From Candidatus Hydrogenedentota bacterium (GTDB lineage: Bacteria; Hydrogenedentota; Hydrogenedentia; Hydrogenedentales; SLHB01): a stretch of 16,821 nucleotides of DNA. The notes beneath the pieces are model-generated. The model saw nothing but the letters and a program-made list of their open reading frames with translations. It did no database searches and had not been told where the DNA came from. A program made the translations under genes and the position numbers. Shown here piece by piece: positions 537-16,821 of this stretch; within the stretch, counting starts at the first letter, position 1; every line of letters starts with the position of its first letter. Location: assembly GCA_045863295.1 (NCBI GenBank), contig BTWA01000065.1, positions 1 to 16,821 of the forward strand. Direction: 5' to 3'.

Positions 537-549
537 CCCATGATGCAGT

Positions 550-580
550 CGCGGGACGGGAGGCGTATTCCCGTCCCGCG
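550..580. repeat. Perfect 12-bp GC-rich inverted repeat (stem-loop) between the ferredoxin-domain gene and rnfC
   Basis: CGCGGGACGGGA (550-561), 7-nt loop, TCCCGTCCCGCG (569-580). No U-tract follows on either strand. Confidence 0.75.
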
Positions 581-600
581 CATTGGTGAAAGGCGAGCAG

Positions 601-1950: not shown

Positions 1951-3029
1951 GTACAGTGCGACACGCTGTCGAGATTCATACTTCGCCGCATGTCCATACG
2001 GCTGTCACTACCGACCGTATTATGCTGCATGTCGTGTACTCGATGCTGCCCATCTGTGCATTCGCGGTATTTGCTTTCGGCCTATCCGCGCTCCTATTGA
2101 TTACAACGAGCGTCGTCGCTTGTGTGGCAACCGAGCACCTGTTTTGCCGCTTGGCCCATCGTCGCTCCACCGTCGCTGATTACAGCGCCGTCATCACTGG
2201 GATTCTGCTTGCGCTGTCGTTGCCGCCCGGGTTTCCCCTGTGGATGGCCGTGGTAGGCGGATTCGTTTCCATTGCACTGGGTAAAATGATTTTTGGCGGT
2301 CTGGGACAGAACCCTTTCAATCCCGCACTCGTTGGGCGTGCTTTCCTCCAGGCGGCGTTTCCAGTCGCCATCACGACATGGTCCCCCGTTTTTTCCCCTT
2401 CAGTCTGGTCGCCGGATCGGTTCATGTCCATACCGATGGCCACTCTTTCTCTGCCGTTTATGAGACCCGATAGTGTGGCCGCGTTCATTCAAGGTATCAC
2501 CGTGGATGGGTTTACAGGCGCAACACCGCTGGCCCGAATGAAATTCGAAGGGCAACCAACGCCGATTGTCGATTTAATCATGGGAATGACCAGCGGCTCC
2601 ACGGGCGAAACGTCCGCTGTGTTGATTCTGATTTGCGGCGCCTATCTCATATTCAAAGGATTGATGAACTGGCGTATTCCAGCCAGTTTGCTGGGCACTA
2701 CCTTCATACTCAGCTGGGCATTGCACTTGGTCGATTCCAAATATCCTGAACCGCTTTTTGTGCTCTTCTCAGGCGGATTGATGCTCGGGGCCGTATTCAT
2801 GGCATCTGATATGGTTGGATCACCGGTCACGCGCAGGGGTGTGTGGATCTACGGCGCTCTTATCGGCTTCCTAATCGTGCTGATTCGGGTCGCCGGCGGC
2901 CTGCCCGAAGGCGTAATGTACGCCATACTCCTCGGAAATGCCTGCACGCCGATTATCAACATGCTCACCCAACCGAAGCCCTTCGGCTGGCACCGGCCGG
3001 CCAGGCAACCGAAGGGAGAAAAGTCATGA
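1947..3029 (+). CDS. rnfD: Rnf electron transport complex subunit D
   Basis: Polytopic membrane protein with SPH, FGGLGQNPFNPALVGRAFL, FMN-attachment motif DGFTGATPL, GGLMLGAVFMASD and PEGVMYAILLGN. ATGA overlap with the rnfC stop. Confidence 0.95.
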   Translation: MSTVRHAVEIHTSPHVHTAVTTDRIMLHVVYSMLPICAFAVFAFGLSALLLITTSVVACVATEHLFCRLAHRRSTVADYSAVITGILLALSLPPGFPLWMAVVGGFVSIALGKMIFGGLGQNPFNPALVGRAFLQAAFPVAITTWSPVFSPSVWSPDRFMSIPMATLSLPFMRPDSVAAFIQGITVDGFTGATPLARMKFEGQPTPIVDLIMGMTSGSTGETSAVLILICGAYLIFKGLMNWRIPASLLGTTFILSWALHLVDSKYPEPLFVLFSGGLMLGAVFMASDMVGSPVTRRGVWIYGALIGFLIVLIRVAGGLPEGVMYAILLGNACTPIINMLTQPKPFGWHRPARQPKGEKS

Positions 3030-3718
3030 GCACATCCGCTCCATCCATCGCAATACCACAAGTGCGGCAGGCCAGCAGCGTTAAGATGATCGCCACGCTG
3101 GGCACTGTCTCCACAATATCCGGAGTGTTGTTAGTGCTCGTTTACTTGGGCACGTTCGACATCATTGCCGAGAACAAGCGTAAGGCATTGGAAGAAGCCG
3201 TATTTACGGTACTTCCGGGGGCCGTGGAACGGGCCACGTACGCCGTGTCAGCGGACGGCTTTACCCCCATCCAAGGCGACACCAAGGATACAGACGTTGT
3301 CTATGCCGGCTATGACGAGAGCGGCAAGCTTGTGGGGGTCGCCATTACAGCCGCGGGCCAAGGCTATCAAGACATCATCAGCATATTGTTCGGATACGAC
3401 CCTGTCACCGAATCGGTGATCGGCTACAAGCTGCTGGGAAGCAAGGAAACTCCGGGGCTTGGCGACAAGATTGGAAAAGACGAATCGTTTCTGGCTTCCT
3501 TCCGTAAGCTGGATGTCTCTCTGAACTCCGAAGGATCAGGGCTCAAGAACGCAATTGAAGTGATAAAAGATGGCAAGAACAAAGACTGGCAGATTGACGG
3601 TATCTCGGGTGCGACAATTTCCTCCAAAGCCGTAGGGGCCATGCTCAACACGCGCTGCTCCCAGATACTGCCCATTGTTCGCAAGCACGTCGACCAATTG
3701 CAGAAGGTAACACCATGA
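3026..3718 (+). CDS. rnfG: Rnf electron transport complex subunit G (FMN-binding)
   Basis: Single N-terminal TM helix, GQGYQ, ETPGLGDKI and FMN motif DGISGATISS. ATGA overlap with rnfD, GGGAG SD upstream. Confidence 0.93.
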   Translation: MSTSAPSIAIPQVRQASSVKMIATLGTVSTISGVLLVLVYLGTFDIIAENKRKALEEAVFTVLPGAVERATYAVSADGFTPIQGDTKDTDVVYAGYDESGKLVGVAITAAGQGYQDIISILFGYDPVTESVIGYKLLGSKETPGLGDKIGKDESFLASFRKLDVSLNSEGSGLKNAIEVIKDGKNKDWQIDGISGATISSKAVGAMLNTRCSQILPIVRKHVDQLQKVTP

Positions 3719-4362
3719 TCAACGAACCCCAAGAACCTTCAATGGACGTCTTCCTCCGCGGTTTGTGGAAGGAGAATCCCGTGTTCGTCATGGTGCTCGG
3801 AATGTGTCCAACGCTGGCAGTCTCGAATTCCGTGATTAATGCACTTTCCATGGGTCTGGCCGCCACGTTCGTGCTGGTGGCATCGTGTGTGCTCGTATCA
3901 ATCATGCGCAAATGGATTCCGAAGCAAGTTCGAATCGCCACGTATATTGTGATCATCGCGACCTTCGTGACCATGGTGGATTTTGCCATTCAGGCCATCA
4001 GCCTCGAAGTGTATAACGCACTCGGCGCATTCATTGCCTTAATTGTAGTGAATTGCATTATTTTGGGCCGCGCGGAAGCCTTTGCCTCCAAGAACGGGCC
4101 CGTGCGATCGGCGCTGGATGCCCTGGGGATGGGCTTGGGGTTTACGCTGGCCCTCCTGTGCCTCGGCGTTGTCCGTGAAATCCTGGGCAGTGGCACGCTG
4201 CTCGGTTATCCGGTAGTGGGCAAGCATTTCGAACCATGGGCCATCATGATTCTCCCACCGGGCGGCTTCCTGACCCTGGGAACCTGGCTCCTGATTTTCA
4301 ACTGGTGGCGGACTCGAAAAGACCGCCACGCGGATGCCTCAACGGGAGGACACGCAGCATGA
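3715..4362 (+). CDS. rnfE: Rnf electron transport complex subunit E
   Basis: ENPVFVMVLGMCPTLAVS, LIVVNCIILGRAEAFA, REILGSG, ILPPGGF. ATGA overlap with rnfG. Confidence 0.96.
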   Translation: MINEPQEPSMDVFLRGLWKENPVFVMVLGMCPTLAVSNSVINALSMGLAATFVLVASCVLVSIMRKWIPKQVRIATYIVIIATFVTMVDFAIQAISLEVYNALGAFIALIVVNCIILGRAEAFASKNGPVRSALDALGMGLGFTLALLCLGVVREILGSGTLLGYPVVGKHFEPWAIMILPPGGFLTLGTWLLIFNWWRTRKDRHADASTGGHAA

Positions 4363-4940
4363 ATGACGAATCGCTCTTTCAGATCTTCATCAATGCATGT
4401 ATCATCAACAATTTCGTGTTGAGCATGTTTCTAGGCATCTGTCCGTTTCTAGGCGTATCGGGCAAATTGGAAACCGCAAGCCGTATGGGGCTCGCCGTTA
4501 CGTTCGTGTTGATCGTGAGTTCGGCGTGTGCGTATGGAATAAACCTGATTTTGGCTTGGGCCGAAGCACCTTACCTGCAACTGATGTGCTACATCGTAGT
4601 GATTGCGTCGGCAGTGCAACTCGTCGAGATGGTCATAAAGAAATACAGCCCCGCGCTATACAAGGCCCTGGGCATCTATCTGCCTCTCATTACCACCAAC
4701 TGTGCCATTCTGGGCCTCACGTTGTTTCAGACCTCCAAAGGCTACAGTTTTGTGCAGTCCCTGGTGTATGCCGTGGGGGCAGGCGGCGGATTTACACTCG
4801 CACTCGTCATTATGGCGGGGCTTCGTGAACAGTTGAAACTTGCAACTGTCCCAAATGTAATGCAAGGCACGGCCCTCACGCTCATGGTTGCGGGAATCCT
4901 TTCCCTGGCTTTCATGGGATTCGCAGGCCTCGGAGGGTGA
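4359..4940 (+). CDS. rnfA: Rnf electron transport complex subunit A
   Basis: NNFVLSMFLGICPFLGVS, LGIYLPLITTNCAILG, C-terminal SLAFMGFAGL. ATGA overlap with rnfE, GGAGG SD upstream. Confidence 0.96.
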   Translation: MNDESLFQIFINACIINNFVLSMFLGICPFLGVSGKLETASRMGLAVTFVLIVSSACAYGINLILAWAEAPYLQLMCYIVVIASAVQLVEMVIKKYSPALYKALGIYLPLITTNCAILGLTLFQTSKGYSFVQSLVYAVGAGGGFTLALVIMAGLREQLKLATVPNVMQGTALTLMVAGILSLAFMGFAGLGG

Positions 4941-4944
4941 GGAA

Positions 4945-5154
4945 GTGTACAATGGCCTGCACACTATACTCATGATCTTGGGCACCAGTTCGGCCGTGTT
5001 CACAGGAGTAGCCATTTGGTTCTGGATCATGCACATCGCCAGAGACAAAAGCTTGCCCGCCGACTATGACTGCCTGCAGGAATCGGCGTGCGGAAGTTGC
5101 CCTGCAGCCGACACTTGCCAGGACCGCAGCGCCCATGGGCAACCCGCAGCTTGA
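4945..5154 (+). CDS. Small membrane protein with a 4-Cys C-terminal tail (69 aa)
   Basis: GTG start 4 nt after the rnfA stop, preceded by GGAGGGTGAGG. Hydrophobic helix (ILMILGTSSAVFTGVAIWFWIM), then C-x5-C-x2-C-x5-C (CLQESACGSCPAADTC). Confidence 0.65.
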   Translation: MYNGLHTILMILGTSSAVFTGVAIWFWIMHIARDKSLPADYDCLQESACGSCPAADTCQDRSAHGQPAA

Positions 5155-5237
5155 CGGGCCCAATCCGCGTTCCTGCAGAATACCCTGGGATCGGTAAAGT
5201 CGAAGGCCACAAACTTCGTGTGATACAATCCCGCGCT

Positions 5238-6215
5238 ATGCAAACGGCTTTAACGCTACAAGAGTTGTACCGCCCTGTCGAAAGGGAGATGGCGGAGGTC
5301 CGGAAAGCGGTCGCGGGGCTTTGGCACGATGCCCTGAAGCTGGTCCATGGGAGCTCCATCCCCGAACCCCCGATCGGCGGGAAAATGCTGCGGCCGGCGC
5401 TGTGCCTCTTGTCCGCGGGGGCTATAGGCGCCGCGAACGTGGCCGACTATGTGCCCATGGCCACGGCCATGGAACTCCTCCACCTGGCCGCGTTGGCGCA
5501 CGACGACGTCATCGACGGGGCCGACCTACGCCACGGCGACGCCTCTCTGAATGCCCGCTGGGACAACCACACGGCGGTGCTCGGCGGCGACTATCTCGTG
5601 GCACGCAGCATTGGCCTGCTGAGCCGGTATGACTCGTGCGGCGTGATTGTAAATGCCATTGAGTCCGTGCGGATGATGGCCGAGGGCGAGTTAAACCATT
5701 TCGGGCTTGCTCAGAATCAGTACACCGAGGCTGCGTGTATAAGCCTCGCCCGGCAGAAGACCGCAAGCTTGTTCGCGGTTACGTGCAGCACGCCGAGCGT
5801 GCACATTTCCGGCACTCCCATGCAGAACCTCAACGACTATGGCATGAACATCGGTGTCGCGTTTCAATTGGTGGATGACTTGCTGGATTTGTCCCAAAAT
5901 CGCGACGCGCTGGGAAAGCCCTCCTGCGGCGATCTGATTGAAGGCAAGAAGACACTGCCCGTGATCTATATGCGCGAAGCCATGGATGACGCAGGTGTGG
6001 CACGTATCGATGCCATGAAACATGCAAAACTGAGCGATGCCGACCGAACGTGGGTGGCCGAGACACTGGAAAGCACACGGGCCCGCGAACGGGTCGAATC
6101 GATATCCAGGGAATACATCGAGGAAGGCCGCGCAGCAATAAGCAGCCTGCCCGCGAGTTCCTACAAAGATGCAATGATGGGCATTGCGGAATTCATTCTG
6201 GTCCGAGGCAACTGA
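5238..6215 (+). CDS. Polyprenyl diphosphate synthase (IspB/HepT-like, trans-prenyltransferase)
   Basis: GGKMLRP, first Asp-rich motif HDDVID..LRHG, AVLGGD, KTASLF, second motif FQLVDDLLD, GKPSCGDLIEGKKTLP. Ala at the fifth position before the first motif fits a long-chain product. Confidence 0.92.
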   Translation: MQTALTLQELYRPVEREMAEVRKAVAGLWHDALKLVHGSSIPEPPIGGKMLRPALCLLSAGAIGAANVADYVPMATAMELLHLAALAHDDVIDGADLRHGDASLNARWDNHTAVLGGDYLVARSIGLLSRYDSCGVIVNAIESVRMMAEGELNHFGLAQNQYTEAACISLARQKTASLFAVTCSTPSVHISGTPMQNLNDYGMNIGVAFQLVDDLLDLSQNRDALGKPSCGDLIEGKKTLPVIYMREAMDDAGVARIDAMKHAKLSDADRTWVAETLESTRARERVESISREYIEEGRAAISSLPASSYKDAMMGIAEFILVRGN

Positions 6216-6265
6216 CCTGCCCAAATCGAGTCAGGCAATCGCGCTTACCGGTCCATTCCGGAACC

Positions 6266-8425
6266 ATGAATACGAGCAAATCCTACATCTTTTTCCTGAT
6301 GGGCAGTGTCGTCAGTACATGCCTGTTCTCACCAACCGCGGATGGAGAATTGCCAAGGACCACCATCCGCTCGGGCGTGGCCGGTGCACCGGCCATTATC
6401 ATTAATGGGGACACGTACTCCCCCCTGTTTTTTGCGGCCAACAATCAATTCAACCGCGATGAAATCTTGCTGGAGGAACTGCGGCTTGCCGCCGATGCCG
6501 GTTTCAAACTGTATACATTCAATGTCTGGCTGGAACCGTTCAAAACCCCGGACGAAACCGTTGCTGAGGTTGAGAAGTTTGCCTCCGCTCATCCCGAAGG
6601 TTACTTCTACGTGCGCATTTGGCTCGGAGCGCACAGGAGTTGGTTGGCTGAAAATCCAGATGAGCGCATTGTGGATTCCGAAGGAAATGCCAGCGAAATG
6701 GCCTCGCCAGCCAGTGAATTATGGCGCAAAGATACTGCCGAAAGATTGGCCCGGTGTATAGAATTGATAGCCGCGAGTCGCTACGGAAGCAAGCTCTTCG
6801 GCGTGCATCTGGCATACCTTCAAACCGGCGAATGGTTCTACCCGGATACGGAACGCTACTACGACTACTCCCTTCCCGCGCAACAAGCATTTCGAACATG
6901 GCTCAAAGCCAAGTACCGTACGCCTCGAAGCCTTCGAAAGGCGTGGAGTGATCCGGCCGCTACGTTTGACTCTGTACAGATACCCACAGCCCAGGAACGA
7001 GAGGACAACGCATGGGGCCATTTTCGCGACCCCGTGAAGCATGCGAAGGTTATCGATCATCAGCGGTTTCTTTCCGATCAAATGGCCGATACGATTGCAT
7101 ATTTCGCTTCCGAGGTGAAACGTGTCAGCAATCGACGTCTGTTGGTTGGGGCTTTCTATGGCTATACCATGCAATTGAATCACAACGGACCCCGTGCCCT
7201 CGCCCATTCCGGTCATCTGAGTCTGGCGCGCTTGTTGGAATGCAGCGACATTGACATCATTGCGGCGCCCTATGCGTATTTCGAGCGAAACATCGGCGAA
7301 CCGGGGCACTTTCATTTGCCCTTGGATTCCCTGGCACTACATGGAAAGCTGGGCATCGTAGAAGAAGATTCGTACACGCATTTGTCGTCCCCGCCCCAGG
7401 ATCTCCTGATAGCGCCTGGATACCCGGACCGAACCCAGACCATGGAAGAAACACAAGCGCTCCTCCGGCGCAATTTCGCAAACGCCTTCACGCACAGAAA
7501 TGGCATGTGGATCTTCGACTTGTTGTCCGACGGCCGCTGGAATGACAAGGCAATATGGGATTCCGCAAAACTATTGTTGCGGATGGCTGCGGCTTCGCGC
7601 GATGTGCCCGTCTTTGAACCCCAGATTGCCGTGCTGATGGATGAGGAATCGGTACATTTCCTGCAGGACACAACCTGGCCTGTGTTGCTGCAATCGTTGG
7701 CCGTGTGGCTATCCGAATTTGATCGCATGGGCACGCCGGTGGGCTACTACTTACAAAGCGATATTGCGCGACTGCCTGATTCCGTGCGCATGATTGTGCT
7801 GGCAAACCCCTATGTCCTGAGCGAGGACGCGCAGCGGCAAATTGATCGGCTACTCGACCTCGGCTGTACAGTCGTATTGACCTACGCCCCAAATGCCGCA
7901 GGCGGCGCGGGCTCCTCTGTACTGGCGAATATCGCCGAGGCCACGGGATTCACGGTGGAATCCAAAACGGATTCCATGCCATTGCGAATCAAGAGCGTGG
8001 AGACCGATGAGACCGTCGCGCTCGGAACTGACAACTGGGCAAACCGAATCGTAATCACCTCCGACAGCGGACATATTCTGGCACGTTACATGGAGACCGA
8101 TGAAGTAAGTGCCGTCGCCCGCCCCCAAGGAAAGGGCGTACTCGTATATTCCGCCACCCCCAGGCTTCCAGTGGGCCTCCTCCGGTGGATGGCCCAGCGG
8201 AGCGGTGTGCACGTGTATAGCAACGCACCGGGTATGGTGGGTCTTGTGGGCCCCTATCTCATCGTTCACACGTCCCAAGAGACCGATCTCACCATCCAGT
8301 GGCCCGATCCCTTTGATTCCGTCGACCGTATTGTCCCGCTCTCCCCCTTGCCAATGGCAACAAAAAACACAACCTGGGTCGATACCCTGCCCGGCAAAAG
8401 CACCGCCGTCTACCTCGTTCGCTGA
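6266..8425 (+). CDS. Glycoside hydrolase, clan GH-A, GH42/beta-galactosidase-like, with likely signal peptide
   Basis: Hydrophobic N-terminus, TGEWFY (candidate acid/base Glu), DYS...AFRTWLKAKY...LRKAW (GH42-like segment), VEEDSYT (candidate nucleophile) and a C-terminal trimerisation-like region. Substrate not determinable. Confidence 0.7.
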   Translation: MNTSKSYIFFLMGSVVSTCLFSPTADGELPRTTIRSGVAGAPAIIINGDTYSPLFFAANNQFNRDEILLEELRLAADAGFKLYTFNVWLEPFKTPDETVAEVEKFASAHPEGYFYVRIWLGAHRSWLAENPDERIVDSEGNASEMASPASELWRKDTAERLARCIELIAASRYGSKLFGVHLAYLQTGEWFYPDTERYYDYSLPAQQAFRTWLKAKYRTPRSLRKAWSDPAATFDSVQIPTAQEREDNAWGHFRDPVKHAKVIDHQRFLSDQMADTIAYFASEVKRVSNRRLLVGAFYGYTMQLNHNGPRALAHSGHLSLARLLECSDIDIIAAPYAYFERNIGEPGHFHLPLDSLALHGKLGIVEEDSYTHLSSPPQDLLIAPGYPDRTQTMEETQALLRRNFANAFTHRNGMWIFDLLSDGRWNDKAIWDSAKLLLRMAAASRDVPVFEPQIAVLMDEESVHFLQDTTWPVLLQSLAVWLSEFDRMGTPVGYYLQSDIARLPDSVRMIVLANPYVLSEDAQRQIDRLLDLGCTVVLTYAPNAAGGAGSSVLANIAEATGFTVESKTDSMPLRIKSVETDETVALGTDNWANRIVITSDSGHILARYMETDEVSAVARPQGKGVLVYSATPRLPVGLLRWMAQRSGVHVYSNAPGMVGLVGPYLIVHTSQETDLTIQWPDPFDSVDRIVPLSPLPMATKNTTWVDTLPGKSTAVYLVR

Positions 8426-8518: not shown

Positions 8519-9580
8519 ATGTTGGCTCGGGTACAATCATGTGCCATACACGGCATTGAGGGCGTTCCCCTGATTGTCGAGGTGGACAACCGCCCCGGCG
8601 AATTCAAAATGATTCTGGTGGGCCTTCCAGACATGGCTGTGAAGGAAAGCCAGGAACGCGTCACGTCCGCGCTCACCAATTCCGGATTTCGGTTTCCCCG
8701 CGGCAGAAACGTTATCAATCTCGCCCCGGCTGATATGCGCAAAGAAGGCAGTGCCCTGGATTTGCCCATCGCGCTCGGTCTCCTCGCAGCAACGGACCAA
8801 ATCAAGGCCGACTCGATGGAACAGTACATCATCGTGGGGGAACTGGCACTGAACGGGGCCGTGCGCCCGGTAGACGGCGCCTTGCCCATGGCCATATCCG
8901 CGAAGGATCGTGGTTTACGCGGTATTGTCGTGCCTGAGGAAAATGCCGTGGAAGCGGGTATTCTTCCAGGCATCGATGTAATCCCCGTGCGAAACCTCGC
9001 CGAGGCCGCGGGATTCATACACGGTACAACCCAGATTGCGCCTCACGTCACCGACGCGGATCAGTATTTCAAACAGGCACGCAACGGCAAATTCGACCTC
9101 TCCGACGTGAAAGGTCAGGCGCACGTCAAACGTGCCTTAACCATAGCCGCTGCGGGCGGACACAATCTGTTGATGGTTGGTCCCCCGGGCACGGGCAAGA
9201 CGATGCTCGCCGCGAGGCTTCCCACCATTCTACCCGATATCACATTCGACGAAGCGCTCGAAACATCACGAATTTACAGTGTTGCCGGAACGCTGGTGGG
9301 CGGATCGCGCCTTGTCGCACAAAGACCCTTTCGATCGCCCCATCACACCGCAACTACGGTGTCCATTTGCGGCGGAGGCGGCGGCCAACGCCCCATGCCC
9401 GGCGAAGTGAGCATGGCGCACAACGGCGTACTTTTTCTGGACGAACTCCCGGAGTTCAATCGCGGCGCGCTTGAAGCCCTGCGGCAACCGCTTGAAGACG
9501 GCATAGTCCATATCCGGCGCGCGAACTATTCCGTGACTTTTCCGAGCCGGGTCTTGCTTGTCGTCGCCATGAATCCGTGA
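8519..9580 (+). pseudogene. comM: comM/yifB Mg-chelatase-like AAA+ ATPase, 5' two-thirds only, interrupted by element insertion
   Basis: [47 protein letters not shown], Walker [17 protein letters not shown], Walker [18 protein letters not shown]. It ends at VAMNP-stop, where the family continues CPCG plus roughly 150 aa. Confidence 0.93.
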
Positions 9581-11076
9581 AGTTGCGTTGCCTTGGCACC
9601 ATCAATTCTGGAACCTAGCGGTGAATAGGCTAGGTGGATTTCGATATCCCCTTGGCCGACAACGATTTGGTCGGTAATGTGTTCGACGATTCGTCGTCGA
9701 TCTTCCGTCTCCAATTTAGGCCAGCGTTCATGCAGATCCTGGGCATCAGACAACACTTCATCCGTGGACAGCATGTTGACTTTGAGATAGTCAATCTCCG
9801 CACTGACCTTTGCTGACTCGGCGGTCAATTGGTCCAGGCGTTCTTGGAGAGGATCGTACCGGTGCCGGAAGCCTGCCGAGGGGATCTCGCCCCGGTGGTG
9901 CAACTCAAAAAGTTGGTCTAACTTCTGCTGCGTTTCTTGCTTTTCCATTTCCAACTTGGAACGCAATTGTTCCCGATGAATAATCTCCAAATTGGCGTCC
10001 GCCAACAGAGACGAGACCTCGTCTGGGGAAAACAAGAACTCACGGAGCTGCTCATAATAGACCCCTTCCAAGTCCACAATGGGGATCTTGTTGCGGCACT
10101 TGGGACAGACATACTTTGGGGAATTCGACGGCACTTGCATCTTTTGGCCACAGGCGCAAAAGGCCAAACCCGCGAATAAATGAACGGGCCTCTTGCCGGG
10201 TCGTCTGGCCAAGCGTCGTCGCTGTTCGTCCAGGATGACGTTGCATTGGTCCCACAGCTCTTCCTGGACGATGGGTTCCACCTCGGACAGGACCCAATCG
10301 CTCTCTGGCTTGGGAACCCAATGCTTCTTTTCGCCGAGACTCTTGGTATAGTTGGCCCGCCTCACCCCTTTGGCAATCGGGTCACGGATGAGCCGGTCGA
10401 CAGTGGTATCCGACCACAAGCCGCCGTTTCGGGTCCGAAACCCCGCCTCATTGAGCTTGCGCGCAACCGTCTTCTTGCGCCGATACTGCAGGAACAATTC
10501 ATAAATCTGTCGGCGCACGGCTGTTTCGTCCGGGTTGGGAACGATTTTGCCATCCTTCCAGGAATAGCCATACGGGGCTTGGCCCCCTAGGGGCTTGCCC
10601 AACTTGGCGCGAATCGGTACGGACGCCGCCACCCGTTCCGCGATTTCCGATCTCTCCCACTCCGCCATGGCGGCCACGATGGTGAAGAACAAGCGACCAG
10701 CGGCGGTTGAGGTGTCAATGGCTTCTTGGAGCGAAATGAGATCCGCCCTGTGAGATTGAAAGACATCGGCGAAGTCCAATAGATCCCGGGTGCTGCGGGC
10801 CAAACGGGCCAGCTTGGAGAAGATTAGACCGGTGATGTGGCCGCGTTGCAGATCAGTGAGCATGCGGCGAGTCTCGGCGTGTTCCTTGACATACTTGCCG
10901 CTGACGCCTTCCAGGCGATAGACCTCGACGACCTGCCACCCCTTGGCCTCGGCATAGCATTTGGCTCGTTGCTCGTGATGCTGTGGACTCTCTCCTCTGG
11001 CTTGATCTTCAGTGGATACCCGAATCCAGATACCAACTCGTTTGACAGATGAATTCTCGGTCTTTTCCCGCGCCAT
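9526..11076 (-). CDS. Large serine recombinase (integrase), probably comM-targeting
   Basis: WIRVSTEDQ (catalytic Ser), [37 protein letters not shown] recombinase domain, zinc ribbon CACG...CPKC, coiled coil. SD GAGGAGG at 11084-11090. Confidence 0.95.
9560..9600. other. Left junction (attL-type site) of the integrated element within comM
   Basis: GCC ATG AAT CCG TGA: the expected Cys codon TGY is TGA (9578-9580) and ComM similarity stops there. The exact crossover cannot be fixed without the other junction. Confidence 0.8.
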
Positions 11077-11121
11077 GGTGCGGCCTCCTCATTAGCAGAG
11101 TCAGCTTGCTTTGTGCGTTCG

Positions 11122-11150
11122 ATTCTATGTGGAAAGGCTGCTCTTGTCCA
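11122..11150 (-). promoter_or_regulatory. Sigma70-type promoter for the integrase
   Basis: Minus strand TGGACA (11150-11145), 17 nt spacer, TAGAAT (11127-11122), about 45 nt upstream of the ATG. Confidence 0.65.
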
Positions 11151-11190
11151 GAGAAATGGCGGTGAACGGAAGCTAGGAACTACTTGCCAC

Positions 11191-11216
11191 GAAAAAGCCC
11201 AACATAGAGTTGGGCT
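11191..11216 (-). terminator. Intrinsic terminator downstream of hicA
   Basis: Minus strand AGCCCAAC-TCTAT-GTTGGGCT (8-bp stem) followed by TTTTC. Confidence 0.7.
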
Positions 11217-11243
11217 GGCAGATCTGATTTGGAACGATTTCCA

Positions 11244-11465
11244 CTACAGGAGAGTCACAAGTTCTTCCACAGTCAGACCTGCTTGTTTGATAATACTTTT
11301 CATCGTCGACCGTTTGAGGTCTCTGGAATGAACCGGCACAACTACTTCGCGACCATCGGGATGCTTGAGGATGCAGTGCGAACCGCTTTGGCGGGCTTCG
11401 GAGAAGCCGGCCTTTTTGAGGGCAGCGATGAGTTGGCGGGACTTAAGAGCAGGAAGGCGGCTCAT
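11244..11465 (-). CDS. hicA: HicA-family mRNA interferase toxin
   Basis: 73 aa basic protein with LKKAGF..RQSGSH (catalytic His), VVVPVH.RDL...T..SIIKQAGL. ATGA overlap with hicB. Confidence 0.93.
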   Translation of the reverse strand: MSRLPALKSRQLIAALKKAGFSEARQSGSHCILKHPDGREVVVPVHSRDLKRSTMKSIIKQAGLTVEELVTLL

Positions 11466-11710
11466 ACAGCCGAAGAAACGCTCACCTGGACTTGGACCGA
11501 GACCGGTTCGCGTGGAGGCCTCTCGGTGGGTACAGGTTTGCCATCTTCAATTAACGATTGCACATACAAGGAGATGGCATCACGGGCCATCTCCAATGCC
11601 TCTTCGTAGGTATCGCCTTCAGTGACGACAGCCGGTAAGGCCGGCACGGTCACCGTATAACCGCCTTCTTCTGCAGGCTCCAGAACGATGGTGTAGTTGA
11701 GTATGCTCAT
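11462..11710 (-). CDS. hicB: HicB-family antitoxin (short form, no C-terminal DNA-binding domain)
   Basis: YTIVLEPAEEGGYTVTVPALPAVVTEGDTYEEALEMARDAI...GKPVP. ATG 11710 has a GGAGA SD. 82 aa. Confidence 0.92.
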   Translation of the reverse strand: MSILNYTIVLEPAEEGGYTVTVPALPAVVTEGDTYEEALEMARDAISLYVQSLIEDGKPVPTERPPREPVSVQVQVSVSSAV

Positions 11711-11743
11711 GCGTCTGTTCTCCATAATCTTATTGCTGGTCTT

Positions 11744-11771
11744 AGTATAGCACCACAAGAAAGACTGTCAA
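11744..11771 (-). promoter_or_regulatory. Near-consensus sigma70 promoter of hicB-hicA
   Basis: Minus strand TTGACA (11771-11766), 16 nt spacer, TATACT (11749-11744), with extended -10 TGn. Confidence 0.75.
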
Positions 11772-11798
11772 ATGCATCGGGCGATCACAGTCAAGGCC

Positions 11799-11836
11799 AC
11801 AATAAAGCCATGCTTTGGGAAGTCCCGCAGCATGGC
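11799..11836 (-). terminator. Intrinsic terminator closing the HTH-RuvC-RuvC-DUF932-ORF operon
   Basis: GCCATGCT (11807-11814) / AGCATGGC (11829-11836) 8-bp stem with inner GGGA/TCCC, followed by TTTATTGT on the minus strand. It starts 5 nt after the stop at 11842. Confidence 0.65.
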
Positions 11837-11841
11837 GAAAT

Positions 11842-12108
11842 TTACATGCAACTCGTCTCCGAAGACGATTCAAATGCGTCTGGATAGGAGTCTCTCAGGG
11901 CATCGATATCGAGTTCGGCCTTTTGACAGTGGAATGTTGAACCATTGTCCAAATGCAGTTCGATACCGATTCCAGACACGTCATTGGCAAAGTGTACTTG
12001 CCGAATTGTCCGGCCAATGAGGAATTCGTGGAATTGAAGCCGAAGCCGGATGCCGTCCGGGGAATGGATGAAGGTTTCAAGGTCAGCCCGGTCACACAGG
12101 TCACCCAT
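11842..12108 (-). CDS. Hypothetical protein (88 aa, acidic)
   Basis: Starts 10 nt after the DUF932-like stop and ends just before a terminator. Globular-looking composition, no family recognised. Confidence 0.6.
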   Translation of the reverse strand: MGDLCDRADLETFIHSPDGIRLRLQFHEFLIGRTIRQVHFANDVSGIGIELHLDNGSTFHCQKAELDIDALRDSYPDAFESSSETSCM

Positions 12109-12118
12109 GGTAACGAGC

Positions 12119-13141
12119 CTAGGCGACTAATGTCAGTAGCCGGGATGCCCGGTAGTCGATTTGCGCCCGTTCCCCTGCGAACACGTTTCGTTGCGAGAGG
12201 CGTGTTAGGGCGTCTACCACCGAGTAGATCGTGAATTCGCCTTGGCCTTTGGCAATGGATAAGGCCTCTTTGGCAATTGCCCGGTTGATTCCTTGAGCCT
12301 GCAGGATAGGTATGACCTCGTCTTCATCATGCCCAAGGACTTCCTTCATGGCCTTGGTAATGACGCGGACAAAGCCGTCTTGTCGCTCGTCTCGCCGTTT
12401 GGTCAAGGTAACGAGAATCTCCCGGATGCTGTCCAAGGCCTCGTGAACATTGGTCGTGTGCTTGCGGGTGAACTCCACAATATCCACAGCATCCCAAACG
12501 ATATGGTTTTGACAGACCTTTTGAAACCAGAAGGTCTGTACACCCACGGTTCGCCGGCCCACCTCGGAGTTCCACAAGAAGAAACCGGGGGCAAAGAATT
12601 GGCCGTCGATCTCCGTCCAACCGGTCGGATCGATGAGAAAGCAGAACATGTCCTGCTCTCCGCAGTACAATCCGGTCCCGCCCCCCATCGCCTCCTGGGC
12701 CGCCTCGAAATCCGTGACGAATTCCAGTACCAGGGACAACAGATCGACATTGTAGAGACGGGTGTAACTGACGCCATGGACCGAGCGGATTTGGTCGCCC
12801 AACGTGAACACTTGAAGCGGTTTGTTCCCACGCGGAAGGGTTTCGCCAAGGACCAGACTGGCCGTCTTGGACGACAATCGGCTGACAGTCTCTTTGCTGA
12901 CTTCCGCCAGCTTGCAGACTTGGCCAAATACCCAGTCATTCAGGCCGAAGGGCTCGTCATTCGCCACCATCCGCAGACTGCCGTTGGTCGGTTCGATGCA
13001 CACGTCCATCGGGGAGTACCATCTGGTTTGGGACTCCTGCTTTTCCCGATGACAGTGTTCCCAGAGTTCGGACAGCGAGGAAAATCGCTCGTCCGGCCTC
13101 CGGGAGAAGAGTTGATTGTGCGCTTTGACAAGGTTCTGCAT
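12119..13141 (-). CDS. DUF932-like mobile-element protein
   Basis: 340 aa with LFSRRPDERFSSLSEL, GLYCGEQDMFCFLID, GFFLWNSEVG and QKVCQNHIVW, matching my recollection of the DUF932 NS..G and CxN motifs. SD AAAGGA. Confidence 0.75.
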   Translation of the reverse strand: MQNLVKAHNQLFSRRPDERFSSLSELWEHCHREKQESQTRWYSPMDVCIEPTNGSLRMVANDEPFGLNDWVFGQVCKLAEVSKETVSRLSSKTASLVLGETLPRGNKPLQVFTLGDQIRSVHGVSYTRLYNVDLLSLVLEFVTDFEAAQEAMGGGTGLYCGEQDMFCFLIDPTGWTEIDGQFFAPGFFLWNSEVGRRTVGVQTFWFQKVCQNHIVWDAVDIVEFTRKHTTNVHEALDSIREILVTLTKRRDERQDGFVRVITKAMKEVLGHDEDEVIPILQAQGINRAIAKEALSIAKGQGEFTIYSVVDALTRLSQRNVFAGERAQIDYRASRLLTLVA

Positions 13142-13264
13142 GTCTCAATCCTTTCTTGGGGGTGTCCCTGTTTTCACTCGGGAGACCAACCATTGGTCCC
13201 TCGGCTCCCAGAACAGAACTCTGCACTGGTAACCGAAGAACCAATTGACTGAGACACTTCTCCC

Positions 13265-13768
13265 CTACTTCAAATCATCCTGGGCTTTCAGACCCACTGC
13301 TACGGCATCGAACATGTGGCCATGAAATCGCTCCTTCCAGCGACGCTCCCGCACTACGAACGACCGTAGTTCTGGGAAACGCCACGTGACCATGAACGCG
13401 ACTTGGCGTTTGTTGGCGCCGCCTAGGCCGCAGAGGAACTTGCGGACAGAAGATGGCGAGTAGGCCCGTATTTTGAGTCCATGCTGCTTGCCCAAACGGG
13501 CAAGCGTCCTGACTATAGCGACATGGGTGGACATTCTTGGGGTGCGGCCTCGAAACGAGACTTCGATGGCCAGGACATTGGGCTTCAGATGCCCGATAAT
13601 CTCGTTGCCCACTTTCCGTACGGCTTGGACCGCACCTTGCTTGTCTAACCCCGGAGGCAGGACTTTGACTCCATGATAAAGTAGTTCGCCACCGTGCAGG
13701 ACGGCGTAGCCCAGATAGCGGGTGCCGGGATCGATGGCGAGGATGCGCTTTGTGTAATTATGCTTCAT
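13265..13768 (-). CDS. RuvC-like (RNase H fold) Holliday-junction resolvase/nuclease, copy 2 in transcription order
   Basis: RILAIDPGTRYLGYAV (Asp), VLAIE (Glu), SPSSVRKFLCGLGGANKRQV (RuvC P..VK....G.G.A.K.QV motif), HMFDAVAV (His/Asp). Confidence 0.88.
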   Translation of the reverse strand: MKHNYTKRILAIDPGTRYLGYAVLHGGELLYHGVKVLPPGLDKQGAVQAVRKVGNEIIGHLKPNVLAIEVSFRGRTPRMSTHVAIVRTLARLGKQHGLKIRAYSPSSVRKFLCGLGGANKRQVAFMVTWRFPELRSFVVRERRWKERFHGHMFDAVAVGLKAQDDLK

Positions 13769-13785
13769 GGGTTGATTGGTTATAC

Positions 13786-14304
13786 TTAAAGGCCCGTCGA
13801 CCTTTGGCTTTCCTCCCTGTACGTAATGGCAAAGGCCAGGGCGTCAAAAATACTCATACGTGGATCCTCGGACATCCATGGCTTGCGATAGGGCGGACGA
13901 TACAACCCCAAAACCGGGAATCGCTGCACTAAGGCTTGAACCCGTTCTTCCTTCGTGCGCGCTACCCACTTTCCAAAGGTCAGTTGCACTTGAGTAACGC
14001 TTGAACGTCCGACAGCCAATCCCAGACGGGTAACCATTCTCTCGACACCTTGTAGCGCCTTGCGGGCGCGCACGCCGCGGCGGCTTTCCTCGCCTTCCAG
14101 GTTCTCCATGACAATGATAGCCGGTTGGTAGCGTTCAATGAGCATCCGCACCCCTCCTTTCATGGAGGCATCATAGACACCAGGTAAACGCCGCACGCCC
14201 CAGTCCACCAGCCGGTCCTTGCCTTCCAATACAACAAACCCCATACCCCGATGAAACGGATCCAGAGCCAATACCCGCTCTGGATAATAGGGACGCGACA
14301 TCAT
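13786..14304 (-). CDS. Divergent RuvC-like (RNase H fold) nuclease, copy 1 in transcription order
   Basis: RVLALDPFHRGMGFVVLEG, IIVMEN, TKEERVQAL..RFP, SIFDALAFA. Collinear with the neighbouring RuvC. ATGA overlap with the HTH gene. Confidence 0.75.
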   Translation of the reverse strand: MMSRPYYPERVLALDPFHRGMGFVVLEGKDRLVDWGVRRLPGVYDASMKGGVRMLIERYQPAIIVMENLEGEESRRGVRARKALQGVERMVTRLGLAVGRSSVTQVQLTFGKWVARTKEERVQALVQRFPVLGLYRPPYRKPWMSEDPRMSIFDALAFAITYREESQRSTGL

Positions 14305-14660
14305 AGGATTTCGCCTACTTCATGGCTCTCCACTTCTTTAGCCAGAAATTGCAGCCACTTGTGTTTCGCCTCGATGAGTTTCCGACCTTTGGCTGTTTTT
14401 AGGTCAGCAAGGAGCGTCACAGCACGCTCCCGGATTCGCTCTTGGGCATCAAAGTAGACACCTTCGAACAACTTGTGCAACGGTGCGCCCAGGGCAAGTT
14501 CTAGGAGTATCGCGGTCTTAAGCGACGGGGATCGCTTGAACGCCTCGTAATGGGACACGGAACTGCCTGAACCATGCCCGATGAGCCGCGCCAGATCCTT
14601 GACGGTGAGGCCGGTCGCCTTGCGCGCCGACCGAATGTAATTCGATAAACAGTCGACCAT
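14301..14660 (-). CDS. XRE/Cro-family helix-turn-helix regulator
   Basis: NYIRSARKATGLTVKDLARLIG...SVSHYEAFKRSPSL...LELALG...LF, plus a C-terminal helical extension. Confidence 0.9.
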   Translation of the reverse strand: MVDCLSNYIRSARKATGLTVKDLARLIGHGSGSSVSHYEAFKRSPSLKTAILLELALGAPLHKLFEGVYFDAQERIRERAVTLLADLKTAKGRKLIEAKHKWLQFLAKEVESHEVGEIL

Positions 14661-14797
14661 TGTTAAAAAGCTAATGGGCTAATAATCATGGTTCCATTCT
14701 ATTTCGCTGCTGTTGCGGGAAGTAGTCGGGCAAGTATGACAGATGTGCCAGATTTGCCTTTCTCGCGCGATAGTTATCAAACAAGTAACTTATCGAA

Positions 14798-15004
14798 ATG
14801 CAAACGCCACTAAGCGAAGCGACAATTGTTAAACGATATCGGAAGTTGTATCCGCAATACACTGACGAGCAACTTATTGAAATTCATCAGCGCATGCTTA
14901 CACTCGTAGCGATACTTAGGCGAATCGTCCTACATAGGCGCGGTCAAAAGCTCACACACGAGTCTAGATTGACGTCATCAAGTATTCGATCTACGATTCG
15001 TTAA
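14798..15004 (+). CDS. Small basic hypothetical protein upstream of the second recombinase
   Basis: 68 aa, amphipathic helices (RKLYPQYTDEQLIEIHQRMLTLVAILRRI). Divergent from the HTH gene and ends 24 nt before the recombinase ATG. Confidence 0.55.
   Translation: MQTPLSEATIVKRYRKLYPQYTDEQLIEIHQRMLTLVAILRRIVLHRRGQKLTHESRLTSSSIRSTIR
14969..14997 (+). promoter_or_regulatory. Sigma70-type promoter for the second recombinase, inside the 3' end of the small ORF
   Basis: TTGACG (14969-14974), 17 nt spacer, TACGAT (14992-14997), 31 nt before ATG 15029. Confidence 0.65.
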
Positions 15005-15028
15005 AGAGTATTTTTTCCATTTTCTCAT

Positions 15029-16606
15029 ATGAATGACTACTTTGCCTACATTCGCGTTTCAACAGTTCGCCAAGGCGAGCGTGGCGTATCCCTGACTGAA
15101 CAAAGAGATGCTATTGCGCGATACGCAACTGCCAATTCCTTAAACATCCGAGACTGGTTTGAAGAACGTGAAACGGCCGCAAAAAGCGGCAGGCCTGTAT
15201 TCTCAAAAATGCTAGAGCAACTCAAGCGCGGACTAGCAAAGGGTATTGTGATTCACAAAATCGACCGCAGCAGTCGGAATCTGCGAGACTGGGCCAACTT
15301 GGGCGAACTACTTGACAGCGGAGTTGATGTCCGGTTCGCCCACGAAGGCCTTGATCTGAATTCGCGCGGCGGACGGCTCTCAGCGGATATACAGGCAGTT
15401 GTTGCTGCTGACTATATCCGCAATCTGCGGGAAGAAACGCGCAAGGGGTTCTATGGGCGACTTAAACAGGGTTTGTATCCCCTGGCCGCTCCGTTAGGCT
15501 ATAAAGACAATGGGGCGGGAAAGCCAAAATCCATTTGTCCCATCAACGGACCGATAGTACGCAGTGGATTTGAAGCATACGCGACTGGGCTCTACTCTCT
15601 CGACAGGCTTACGGAAGAACTATATGAATGGGGACTTCGAACCCGTTATGGCGGGAAATTGACACTCGGTGCTGTAGCAGAGTTGTTGAAAAACCCATTT
15701 TACATTGGCCAAATCCGAATCCGCAGCACCAATGAAATTTTTGCTGGTTTACATGAACCGCTCATCAATACGAGCCTGTTCAAACATGTACAAGCGGTTT
15801 TCGAGGGACGAATGCCTAAACGCACTCGAACCCACGAGTTTCTCTTCCGTCAAATCTTTACATGCAAAGCTTGCGGCTGCTATCTAATTGGCGAGTACCA
15901 GAAAGGACATGTCTATTATCGTTGTCACTCCAGGCGTTGCCGAATGACCTGCATACGCGAAAACCTCCTTGAAGACGCTACTGCTGCTTCTCTGTCTCGC
16001 ATAAAACTAACTACGGAGGAAATTGCCAATTTGAAGGACGTTGCCAATGAAGCCCAGGCAGAATTCACAAAAAACAGGCAGAAGGTCCTCGCTTCGTTGG
16101 AACTGAAGAAGACCGCTATTAACGGGAGGTTAGATCGACTCCTAGATGCATACTTAGACCAATGTATCTCCAAGGCTGACTATGAGCACCGTAAGAAGAG
16201 CGTTTTACTTGATATCAGTCTTATTGAAGAAAGACTGCGGAACTTGCATAGCGATTCAACGCATGAGGAAAAAATTACTATGGAACTACTCGAACTACTT
16301 AAAACCCTTGATTTAAGCCATAAAACAGGCAAAATATCAGATAGCCGCGAATTACTCAGAACTATATACTCGAACCGTGTAGTACTTGGAAAAAACGTTG
16401 AATTAGAGCCAAATATTCCATTTCGCGAACTATCAAATCGCCCCATTTTAACGAATTGTTGCCCTTTCGGAGACACGAGTCGAACTTGGTGGAAAGAATT
16501 TCTTAAGCGACATATTGCGCGTACTATGGGTGACATTTCCAAGAACGATTCACCAAGTGAACCCAAATCTGACAAGAAGCCACGAGGTCGGCCGAGATTG
16601 AACTGA
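15029..16606 (+). CDS. Second large serine recombinase
   Basis: YFAYIRVSTVRQ (catalytic Ser), GRPVF..ML, HKIDRSSRN, APLGY, LLKNPFYIG, HEPLI, zinc ribbon CKACG...YYRCHSRRC, coiled coil. Confidence 0.95.
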   Translation: MNDYFAYIRVSTVRQGERGVSLTEQRDAIARYATANSLNIRDWFEERETAAKSGRPVFSKMLEQLKRGLAKGIVIHKIDRSSRNLRDWANLGELLDSGVDVRFAHEGLDLNSRGGRLSADIQAVVAADYIRNLREETRKGFYGRLKQGLYPLAAPLGYKDNGAGKPKSICPINGPIVRSGFEAYATGLYSLDRLTEELYEWGLRTRYGGKLTLGAVAELLKNPFYIGQIRIRSTNEIFAGLHEPLINTSLFKHVQAVFEGRMPKRTRTHEFLFRQIFTCKACGCYLIGEYQKGHVYYRCHSRRCRMTCIRENLLEDATAASLSRIKLTTEEIANLKDVANEAQAEFTKNRQKVLASLELKKTAINGRLDRLLDAYLDQCISKADYEHRKKSVLLDISLIEERLRNLHSDSTHEEKITMELLELLKTLDLSHKTGKISDSRELLRTIYSNRVVLGKNVELEPNIPFRELSNRPILTNCCPFGDTSRTWWKEFLKRHIARTMGDISKNDSPSEPKSDKKPRGRPRLN

Positions 16607-16686
16607 TGGGTCTTAGTGGATCATGCGGTCAGTTTACGCTACTGGTTCATGAGATAAAGGAGGGCAGGTGTGACGTTTGGTGACCT

Positions 16687-16821
16687 TTATGGACAAGGTA
16701 GGTTAGTAAAACTATTCTGTTGCACCTTCTCTGGCAAGCACCGTACAAACCATCCTATTGGCACTATGAGCTTACCCCCATCTTTCGACAGGTACGGGGT
16801 TAAATTAAGCGATAATAGTAC
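16687..16821 (-). CDS. Possible 3' end of a minus-strand gene entering from beyond the window
   Basis: One minus frame is open for 44 codons from the window edge to TAA at 16689-16687 (VLLSLNLTPYLSKDGGKLIVPIGWF...). No motif recognised. Confidence 0.2.
   Translation of the reverse strand, partial: VLLSLNLTPYLSKDGGKLIVPIGWFVRCLPEKVQQNSFTNLPCP

Follow-up and report, generated by a model that had tools for sequence, protein, structure and literature searches.

Why should a mobile element that carries large serine recombinases also carry two RuvC-like genes in tandem? The question is raised by a 16,821-nt stretch of Candidatus Hydrogenedentota bacterium DNA (assembly GCA_045863295.1, contig BTWA01000065.1; hereafter the window), which is the entire contig C65 of an assembly of 6.3 Mb in 88 contigs. 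A minus-strand operon in this window encodes, in order, an XRE-type helix-turn-helix (HTH) protein, two RuvC-fold proteins (RuvC1 and RuvC2), a DUF932-like protein and a small protein, orf88; it stands back to back with a small open reading frame (ORF), orf68, and a large serine recombinase, SR2. The first-pass annotation of this DNA had pointed out that serine integrases do not need a resolvase, and had proposed that the two RuvC-fold proteins do something else. We found that this DNA forms one end, with conserved backbone genes, of an island that is integrative and probably mobilizable, and that another large serine recombinase, SR1, inserted into the gene comM. The operon itself appears, from sequence comparison, to be part of a widespread, undescribed class of modules in which a RuvC-type enzyme always comes with a second, often inactive RuvC-like protein.

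All ORFs of the operon, orf68 and SR2, with their distances, were recovered as first annotated, and both genes of the RuvC-like tandem held up. The downstream one, RuvC2 (13265-13768, minus strand), starts 17 nt after RuvC1 and is a RuvC-family nuclease of what we call the 'b' type. It matches Pfam RuvC (PF02075, E 3e-14) with 53.6 bits against a cut-off of 22.2 and phrog_159, 'RuvC-like Holliday junction resolvase', at 7e-9, and its D13-E69-H151-D154 site is intact. The supposition that the tandem is extra to the housekeeping gene proved right: the housekeeping ruvC is encoded on contig C5 (G000:C5:228540-228983, 172 bits), and RuvC2 scores 45.5 and 44.9 bits, below the cut-offs of 163 and 100.65, with the NCBIfam equivalogs TIGR00228 and NF000711, while RuvC1 has no match to the NCBIfam RuvC equivalogs. 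The NCBI label of ordinary RuvC on RuvC2 relatives is misleading.

Two sets of related loci were collected. A scan with an RuvC1 alignment, limited to one genome per species, yielded 80 loci, 79 of which have an intact RuvC1 ORF; a metagenome scan with an RuvC2 alignment yielded another 80. Because both sets were retrieved through peptide patterns, at 80 loci per set, they are samples and not censuses, and the gene counts depend on phmmer/BLAST thresholds and on ORFs that we called ourselves, each from the first start codon that follows a stop. Record titles place the RuvC1-family loci in at least 15 phyla and include Desulforhopalus and Bradyrhizobium isolates.

The RuvC2 set revealed a strict association. 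An RuvC-like partner lies upstream of RuvC2 in 73 of 80 loci and a truncated one in locus L138; in the remaining six the match lies no more than 200 nt from a contig end, and these are outside the partner count, so that RuvC2 was never without an upstream RuvC-like partner in 74 testable loci. In L138 (L138:3-567) the upstream copy is reduced to its last 48 residues, and the end of a transposase-like ORF lies just upstream of it. The partner is of RuvC1 type in five loci, three of which continue with a DUF932-like gene as in the window (L085, L086, L091). Elsewhere it is a close paralogue ('a'), dead in 63 of 65 scored copies, with the first Asp changed to Asn or Ser, Glu to Lys, His/Asn to Arg and the last Asp to Glu. 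The downstream 'b' copies keep D, E, N/H and D in 73 of 73 cases. A tree of RuvC proteins separated the RuvC1 clade (100/100), the dead 'a' clade (100/98) and the 'b' clade (99/93), with the window RuvC2 nested in 'b'. RuvC is a textbook homodimer; the gene order in these loci suggests hetero-pairing instead.

The dead/active operons follow the order HTH, replication initiator, a, b. Where the gene immediately before 'a' could be examined, it encodes the initiator in 35 of 42 loci (phrog_186/428/270, E 1e-12 to 1e-14; Pfam HTH_36). Their contigs also carry Rad52/22, PD-(D/E)XK nuclease, DUF932, RadC, coupling-protein-like and tyrosine-integrase genes. RuvC2-type pairs are therefore found beside tyrosine integrases as well, in line with the early claim that the RuvC-fold genes are not tied to integrase chemistry. 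A single contig of 2.9 million in IMG/VR, searched with chosen peptide patterns, bears a RuvC2 relative, and its context is unchanged.

RuvC1 (13786-14304, minus strand) by itself draws no Pfam match. Over its full length it shares 25% identity with RuvC2 (E 6e-7), and its AlphaFold2 (AF2) model, with a mean predicted local confidence (pLDDT) of 90.7, has bacterial RuvC chains as best PDB matches in Foldseek (probability 1.00, template modelling (TM) score 0.62-0.72). The family profile also matches PDB RuvC sequences (E 3e-5), aligning D15, E67 and D154 with catalytic residues. RuvC1 thus has a true RuvC fold, and it belongs to a separate clade. The family comprises at least 100 clusters, and a precomputed PF02075 match was present in 30 of 100 relatives among the matches listed. 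JGI labels the relatives as a RuvABC subunit ('RuvABC endonuclease subunit') and RefSeq as hypothetical, and both labels are misleading.

What distinguishes RuvC1 is the state of its active site. The window protein has D15, E67, S151 and D154 at the active-site positions, plus an RKPWMSED motif. Of 80 rows, one from the window and 79 from related loci, 35 have an intact D-E-D triad; Tyr takes the place of the first Asp in 18 rows, Ala and His in 5 each, and Gln that of the Glu in 14. Restricted to the 72 complete rows used for a tree, 35 are intact and 37 degenerate. The motif residues R140, K141, W143 and E146 are nevertheless kept in 75-78 of 79 sequences, and D154 in 72. Since half of the family lacks the triad and the RKPWMSED motif is kept, selection in this family must target something other than RuvC catalysis. 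The triad is intact in 8 of 9 loci where RuvC2 follows versus 27 of 71 elsewhere (Fisher p 0.009, relatedness ignored). In the 72-row tree the window RuvC1 groups with that of L008, a locus bearing the same RuvC2, DUF932-like and orf88 genes. Four loci (L031, L023, L044 and L056) come from bins labelled Pacearchaeota or candidate phyla radiation, and their RuvC1 groups with Desulfocapsaceae, Enterobacteriaceae or Bacillota bins, which points to recent transfer or misbinned contigs.

The constant companion of RuvC1 is the HTH gene (14301-14660, minus strand), whose XRE-type identity was supported by a Pfam HTH_3 match (2e-8). The two genes overlap by 4 nt (ATGA) and are translationally coupled; among relatives, 71 of 79 loci have the HTH gene immediately before RuvC1, with a gap of -4 nt in 37 of 63 measured. 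Seven loci scored as HTH-absent include L069 (a single frame), L053 (an IS66 transposase gene in between) and L045 (a second copy of the pair). In L069 the HTH and RuvC1 parts share one 309-aa frame, which may be an assembly frameshift; fused RuvC1 forms were not found among proteins of 302-2000 aa, which is weak evidence. By alignment A5 the HTH proteins of RuvC1 loci form a dedicated family. A complex of HTH and RuvC1 was predicted with a score of 0.49 (runs 0.47-0.51) versus 0.06 for the best control, with a partner pLDDT of at least 81 and at least 70% of contacts common to runs. Among 157 solved complexes, 116 attain the mark used for such predictions, and among 215 mismatched pairs 2 do; with scores of 0.60 or below, just 18 of the 157 solved complexes attain it, along with both passing mismatches. 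The prediction gives weak support to binding of RuvC1 by the HTH protein, and we take it as a modest push in that direction because the gene coupling is strong. The divergent intergenic region (14661-14797) is presumed, from its position alone, to be the control region; a promoter scan found no strong consensus promoter in it.

The pair also persists by itself. Four RuvC1 relatives lie on conjugative Bradyrhizobium megaplasmids; there the pair is surrounded by insertion sequences, and its annotation reads 'HTH regulator' and 'hypothetical protein'. No RuvC1 relative was found in 50,697 phage records.

The idea that the five genes form one unit did not stand. The proposed tabulation of gene neighbourhoods upheld the co-occurrence of HTH and RuvC1 and left the rest loosely attached: RuvC2 follows RuvC1 directly in 8 of 79 loci, a DUF932-like gene is close in 7 and orf88 is present in 3. 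The conserved units are three, namely HTH-RuvC1, (partner)-RuvC2 and hairpin-DUF932-orf88, and the whole layout is rare while its sub-modules are common.

The third unit opens with the spacer upstream of the DUF932-like gene (13142-13264, minus strand, 123 nt), which folds as the first-pass annotation had claimed, with a minimum free energy of -61.6 kcal/mol (z -5.6 to -6.3) that none of 200 shuffles equalled. It contains a long hairpin (13193-13245, minus strand). The upstream regions of close DUF932-like genes have a 15-26-bp hairpin at the same place in 7 of 8 cases (z -1.6 to -7.4), the exception being L037, where the DUF932-like gene sits elsewhere. The hairpin is supported by covariation, with 17 pairs in RNAalifold, 13 of them with compensatory change. 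By eye, the base of the stem is alike and the upper stem variable among loci. Rfam gave no match at E<=1 across 9000-16821, and the hairpin sequence is unique in the genome.

The protein encoded behind the hairpin (12119-13141, minus strand) is a long, 340-aa form. Alone it reaches 16.8 bits with PF06067, under the cut-off of 23; yet 22 of 29 aligned relatives match PF06067 (best 3.5e-10), in agreement with the first DUF932-like call, and the protein matches phrog_1362 (3e-12). Own-cluster and structure rows of the window protein in the Atlas are named DUF932 (TM 0.95), and we assign the protein to the DUF932 family on these matches. The family is very large (1791 cluster representatives at E<=1e-3), and this member is the best-conserved protein of the operon, with 55-68% identity in L008, L085, L028, L064 and L037, across phyla. 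Its AF2 model (pLDDT 90.4) matched nothing in Foldseek at E<=0.001. The best fold in a wide VIA search (2plg, Z 7.2) is within the noise range of the tool, as are an OB-fold/RPA match for residues 29-125 (Z ~5) and PsiB (Z 4.7), and no fold is claimed.

The last gene, orf88 (11842-12108, minus strand), begins 10 nt after the DUF932-like gene and is of unassigned family, with no match in Pfam, PHROGs, PADLOC or NCBIfam. Homologues of 32-42% identity stand directly after the DUF932-like gene in L008, L028 and L064. Tandem orf88 paralogues lie near the end of contig C55 (G000:C55:24271-24510, 40%; 24870-25082, 34%). The terminator first drawn behind orf88 was not recovered: no terminator-like site was found there.

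The mobile context, proposed at first from the recombinase, was established by a split comM. The comM 5' fragment (8519-9580, plus strand; Mg-chelatase-like ATPase) is cut at about residue 353, so that Pfam Mg_chelatase is matched over positions 1-158 of 207 only, and the absent 3' part was located at G000:C38:29503-30021. Everything to the right of the fragment is foreign, comprising SR1, hicAB, the flagged operon, orf68 and SR2; the target gene is thus split and an integrase lies at the island edge. SR1 (9526-11076, minus strand) has Resolvase, Recombinase and Zn_ribbon_recom domains, the first two above the Pfam cut-off and the zinc ribbon under it at 17.6 bits, while all three are above it in SR2 (15029-16606, plus strand). 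Both recombinases match the phrog_95 integrase (2e-79 for SR1 and 4e-107 for SR2). SR1 homologues (E<1e-100) stand beside a comM 5' fragment, downstream of RuvC1, in 9 of 79 RuvC1 loci, and SR1 is the comM-specific integrase that inserted the island. Upstream of RuvC1, 38 of 79 loci have a divergent SR2-like gene and 3 others have one in the same orientation; 21 loci match SR2 at E<1e-100.

Five other genomes have comM broken at residues 352-360, and three of them keep both halves on one contig, 32, 43 and ~50 kb apart. The complete 32-kb island of genome G001 shows the full layout. Its left part consists of comM-C', HTH, three unknown genes, a large coupling-protein-like ATPase, an unknown gene and a small coupling-protein-like ATPase; the middle holds a type I restriction-modification system, followed by cargo that includes an OLD-family ATPase with a UvrD-like helicase; the right part reads SR2, small ORF, F2, HTH, RuvC1, DUF3768, SR1, comM-N'. 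Because there are two coupling-protein-like ATPases in this element, we infer that such islands are probably mobilizable. Phage structural genes were not recognised in it. G001 is a Desulfocapsaceae genome, and its island spans L165/L166 (G001:C2:4208500-4243200); the OLD-family ATPase and UvrD-like helicase form a Gabija-like pair, and LpxC-like and LpxD-like genes and a 1249-aa protein without family are also present. At the far island end of another genome, G002, two adjacent comM 3' fragments (C12:1453559-1454023 and 1455483-1455950) suggest successive insertions or a tandem array.

The neighbourhoods of the RuvC1 relatives tell the same story. Coupling-protein-like ATPases occur on C38, twice in G001 and, at ~416 aa, in 16 of 79 RuvC1 loci, and a CHC2-Toprim primase in 8 of 79. 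F2, a P-loop ATPase of ~450 aa that is absent from the window, is present in 46 of 79 loci, flanked by SR2 and the HTH gene (e.g., L063:5998-7353); it has no match in Pfam, PHROGs or PDB sequences, and its Atlas neighbours include a cluster with DUF3631 in 25% of members, which is a lead only. The genes after RuvC1 in related loci are DUF3768 (9 of 79), RadC (7), ArdC (7) and a short DUF932 (4). The relatives clearly sit in integrative islands, probably mobilizable ones, equipped with genes for replication and for coupling proteins. The early remark that conjugation and replication genes are lacking is thus true of the window, but the contig stops 215 nt past SR2, and relatives carry such genes.

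The far side of the window's own island probably lies on C38. Upstream of the comM 3' end this contig carries a triple-HTH gene, cargo, a full-length comM paralogue and a 1032-aa coupling-protein-like ATPase. The paralogue (G000:C38:21406-22965, or L002:1406-2965) lies 6.5 kb upstream of the 3' fragment (L002:9503-10021) and is 73% identical to the window 5' fragment and 65% to the 3' fragment. The paralogue may be an island-borne replacement copy or a host paralogue. In L028 an intact comM that is 74% identical to the C38 paralogue stands 1.5 kb past orf88. C38 also encodes, as presumed island cargo (G000:C38:9965-16324), a 2119-aa protein with RHS repeats and a Peptidase_C39 domain, plus an IS66 transposase fragment. 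PSD1/PSCyt domain proteins on C38 could hint at a planctomycete host, a reading that we rejected in favour of Hydrogenedentota; the best comM match, in L028 at 71-74% identity, agrees with the latter.

The remaining features of the window frame this picture. Positions 3-8425 hold host genes by Pfam scan (an Rnf operon, a polyprenyl synthetase and a GH42-like protein). Between SR1 and the operon lie hicA (11244-11465, minus strand) and hicB (11462-11758, minus strand; Pfam HicB_lk_antitox 4e-13), a toxin-antitoxin pair that is variable cargo, found in just one related locus of the RuvC1 scan (L009). Because a strong, near-consensus promoter-like site (11771-11744: TTGACA, 16 nt, TATACT, with TG) lies just ahead of hicB, hicBA appears to be transcribed independently behind the RuvC/DUF932 operon. 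A terminator-like site follows hicA at 11216-11196. On the other side, orf68 (14798-15004, plus strand), called as an ORF upstream of SR2, has a single weak relative (L030, E 9e-4) and no family match in Pfam, PHROGs, PADLOC or NCBIfam.

The window ends in the start of a repeat where the assembly broke (16767-16821): the last 54 nt are identical to the end of contig C10, and in sequencing run X1 these bases belong to a 1452-nt contig with a mean word depth of 43 versus ~10 for other pieces. The repeat, directly after SR2, resembles a multi-copy insertion sequence. As C65 ends in this repeat, the window's own island cannot be traced past 16821. When the contigs of four sequencing runs were placed on the window, X1, which may be the source run, covered all of it, while the other three gave short identical pieces only, at low depth, with the uncovered parts uninformative; no joint spanning the island was seen in the contigs of these runs. 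No RNA run containing the sequence was listed.

How, then, would the operon serve the island? The account we favour, tentatively and with a probability not far below even, is a replication and recombination module of the element, with an asymmetric RuvC dimer and an HTH-RuvC1 regulatory pair, which does not serve the integrase. The minus-strand operon would be the element's own DNA-processing, early operon. The HTH protein may control the divergent promoter region and probably binds RuvC1, encoded by the overlapping gene. RuvC2 would be the dependable catalytic subunit in an asymmetric dimer with the RuvC-like protein encoded upstream of it, RuvC1 in the window and a catalytically dead paralogue in most relatives. 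Such a dimer could nick or resolve branched DNA (Holliday junctions, D-loops, forks, perhaps cruciforms) arising while the excised element replicates and recombines. The hairpin, the DUF932-like gene and orf88 would be a separately controlled, establishment-type cassette, of the kind found beside ArdC, RadC and DUF3768 in DNA that must become established in a new cell. The serine-integrase puzzle would then dissolve, as replication and recombination of the island, and not its integration, would be the business of the RuvC-fold genes.

Several observations weigh against this account. RuvC1 is without any RuvC2-type gene in 71 of 79 loci, and therefore partnering RuvC2 cannot be its main job. 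By parsimony the intact triad takes 10 changes on the RuvC1 tree, at least 4 of them forced by well-supported branches, which speaks against junction cutting as the property that selection maintains in RuvC1. The RuvC1-RuvC2 heterodimer is suggested by gene order, and the lone complex prediction concerned HTH and RuvC1. The link of C65 to C38 is drawn from the two comM halves; C65 terminates in the repeat common to C10, and no sequence joining it to C38 was obtained. No gene of the complete G001 element was identified by Pfam as a relaxase or mating-pore gene, several proteins there having no family. Contig depth in X1 is alike on host and island pieces, a measure that cannot decide whether the excised element replicates. 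Finally, papers mentioning DUF932 give no function for it in their titles and abstracts.

In the main rival, HTH-RuvC1 would chiefly be a regulatory switch, in which RuvC1, a pseudo-nuclease, recognises a DNA structure (a junction, cruciform, stalled fork or the excised circle) and modulates the HTH repressor, thereby setting the time of island excision or replication, and RuvC2 is an add-on nuclease using RuvC1 as a scaffold. The triad, degenerate in 37 of 72 RuvC1 proteins through repeated independent losses, and the retained non-catalytic RKPWMSED motif fit this idea, as do the near-obligate coupling to a dedicated HTH family, the weakly supported complex (0.49 vs 0.06), the persistence of the pair alone among insertion sequences on Bradyrhizobium megaplasmids, and the RuvC-like pseudo-nuclease domains of TEFM, Tex and Spt6 among the RuvC1 fold matches. 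However, the window RuvC1 retains D15, E67 and D154, the intact triads before RuvC2 (8 of 9 vs 27 of 71) fit catalysis in that subtype, and no operator or DNA-structure ligand has been identified. We consider the switch unlikely, though it deserves to be taken seriously.

An extended version, which we regard as rather improbable, gives mobile islands of many phyla a two-part device, combining a structure-reading XRE/RuvC pseudo-nuclease switch with an obligate asymmetric RuvC dimer that nicks a branched or hairpin site. The XRE repressor with RuvC1 would read a junction, a cruciform or the excised circle and toggle between integrated and active states, and the live/dead (or RuvC1-type) dimer would nick one strand to start or finish element replication, the candidate site being the conserved hairpin before the DUF932-like gene. 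If true, bacteria would have their own version of the active/inactive nuclease pairs of eukaryotes, along with a new, structure-sensing form of transcription control.

The other readings are weaker. Two independent homodimeric Holliday-junction resolvases, redundant as in phage replication modules and placed behind an unrelated Cro-like regulator, would account for the RuvC folds and the phrog_159 match of RuvC2; the position after replication genes also resembles temperate-phage early operons, in which a RuvC-like resolvase follows the replication genes. Such simple redundancy is highly unlikely and does not account for a RuvC2 that was never found alone (74 of 74 testable loci) and a partner that is mostly dead (63 of 65); phage records, too, held no RuvC1 relative (0 of 50,697) and IMG/VR a RuvC2 relative on one contig.

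Similarly improbable is a role in toxin-antitoxin activity, abortive infection, defence or anti-defence, in which the XRE protein would be the antitoxin and the RuvC-fold protein a toxin, serving to stabilise the island or to attack DNA that enters the cell. The overlapping two-gene operon with the small HTH gene first would suit it, and so would the persistence of the pair among insertion sequences, the defence cargo of the G001 island and weak matches of the HTH protein to NCBIfam antitoxin families, far under the cut-offs. A nuclease toxin, however, should retain its active site, which 37 of 72 RuvC1 proteins do not, with at least 4 independent changes, and in the dead/active type a replication-initiator gene stands between the HTH and RuvC genes. 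The PADLOC search recommended at the outset returned no defence match: in PADLOC-DB 2.0, RuvC1, the DUF932-like protein, orf88, orf68 and SR2 had none, and the rest was noise (RuvC2 to Cas12c, E 0.005 over 25 residues; SR1 to AbiEii, E 0.005; generic HTH matches of the HTH protein). Nothing usable for defence came from it, and neither defence nor RNA-associated cleavage, both floated in the first-pass annotation, gained support. Least probable is a recombination directionality factor or excision control for large serine recombinases: known factors are unrelated, co-opted proteins, and most RuvC1 loci have such a recombinase no more than 8 kb away (upstream and SR2-like in 41 of 79, downstream and SR1-like in 9 of 79), but the RuvC1 module occurs with SR1-type only, SR2-type only, both or neither within 8 kb, RuvC2-type pairs also adjoin tyrosine integrases, and the words RuvC, nuclease and HTH are absent from PMC12286644, a virtual-pulldown search for such factors.

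Several known systems resemble parts of the module. Bacterial RuvC (E. coli 1hjr, T. thermophilus 4ld0/6s16, D. radiodurans 7xhj) provides the fold common to RuvC1 and RuvC2; RuvC2 has its D-E-H-D site, and RuvC1 has Ser at the third catalytic position and the RKPWMSED loop. Unlike bacterial RuvC, the window genes are island-borne, in tandem and behind an HTH gene. Phage RuvC-like resolvases (phrog_159; Lactococcus phage 67 RuvC, 4ktw, which is among the RuvC1 fold matches) are likewise mobile-element nucleases encoded after replication genes, but they are single genes, unlike the paired RuvC2. In Mus81-Eme1/Mms4 and XPF-ERCC1 the catalytic subunit is always paired with a dead paralogue. The live/dead logic is the same, with the pairing here suggested by gene order only, but those enzymes are eukaryotic and have an ERCC4 fold, not an RNase H-like one. 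The RuvC/YqgF-like domains of TEFM, Tex and Spt6 show a RuvC-like fold without catalysis in nucleic-acid-bound regulators; they match RuvC1 (8u8v_B, 5ola_A, 3bzc) at ranks below RuvC, are unrelated to it in sequence, and none has an XRE partner.

The same establishment and anti-restriction genes (ArdC, RadC, DUF3768, DUF932) occur after RuvC1 in relatives; the listed papers on ArdC-type establishment genes (including PMC7213743) do not mention a RuvC-like gene beside them. With the comM-targeting elements of PMC10083194 the island shares its insertion site, the gene for the Mg-chelatase-like ATPase; passages of that paper give the Mg-chelatase/ATP-dependent-protease gene as the target of 12.4% of predicted site-specific large serine recombinases; the paper catalogues recombinases and sites, and the island backbone (HTH-RuvC1, F2, coupling-protein-like ATPases) is not in these passages. 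The literature search, which left most subscription journals outside, found no account of tandem dead/active bacterial RuvC pairs, HTH-RuvC pairs or the island backbone. The RuvC-containing sub-modules are thus without a description found in print, and the suspicion that no named system has this architecture agreed with our PADLOC, NCBIfam and literature searches.

None of the replication, transfer or control genes of comM islands has been studied so far, and the modules described here mark the backbone of these islands, which are widespread (at least 15 phyla) and, because G001 bears a type I restriction-modification system and the Gabija-like pair, can be counted as carriers of defence genes. 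RuvC pairs could yield structure-specific nickases. The known uses of the RuvC fold would be extended by a natural and numerous class of RuvC pairs in which one subunit is dead, and by a second RuvC-fold family that is tied to a repressor-like protein and repeatedly loses its active site.

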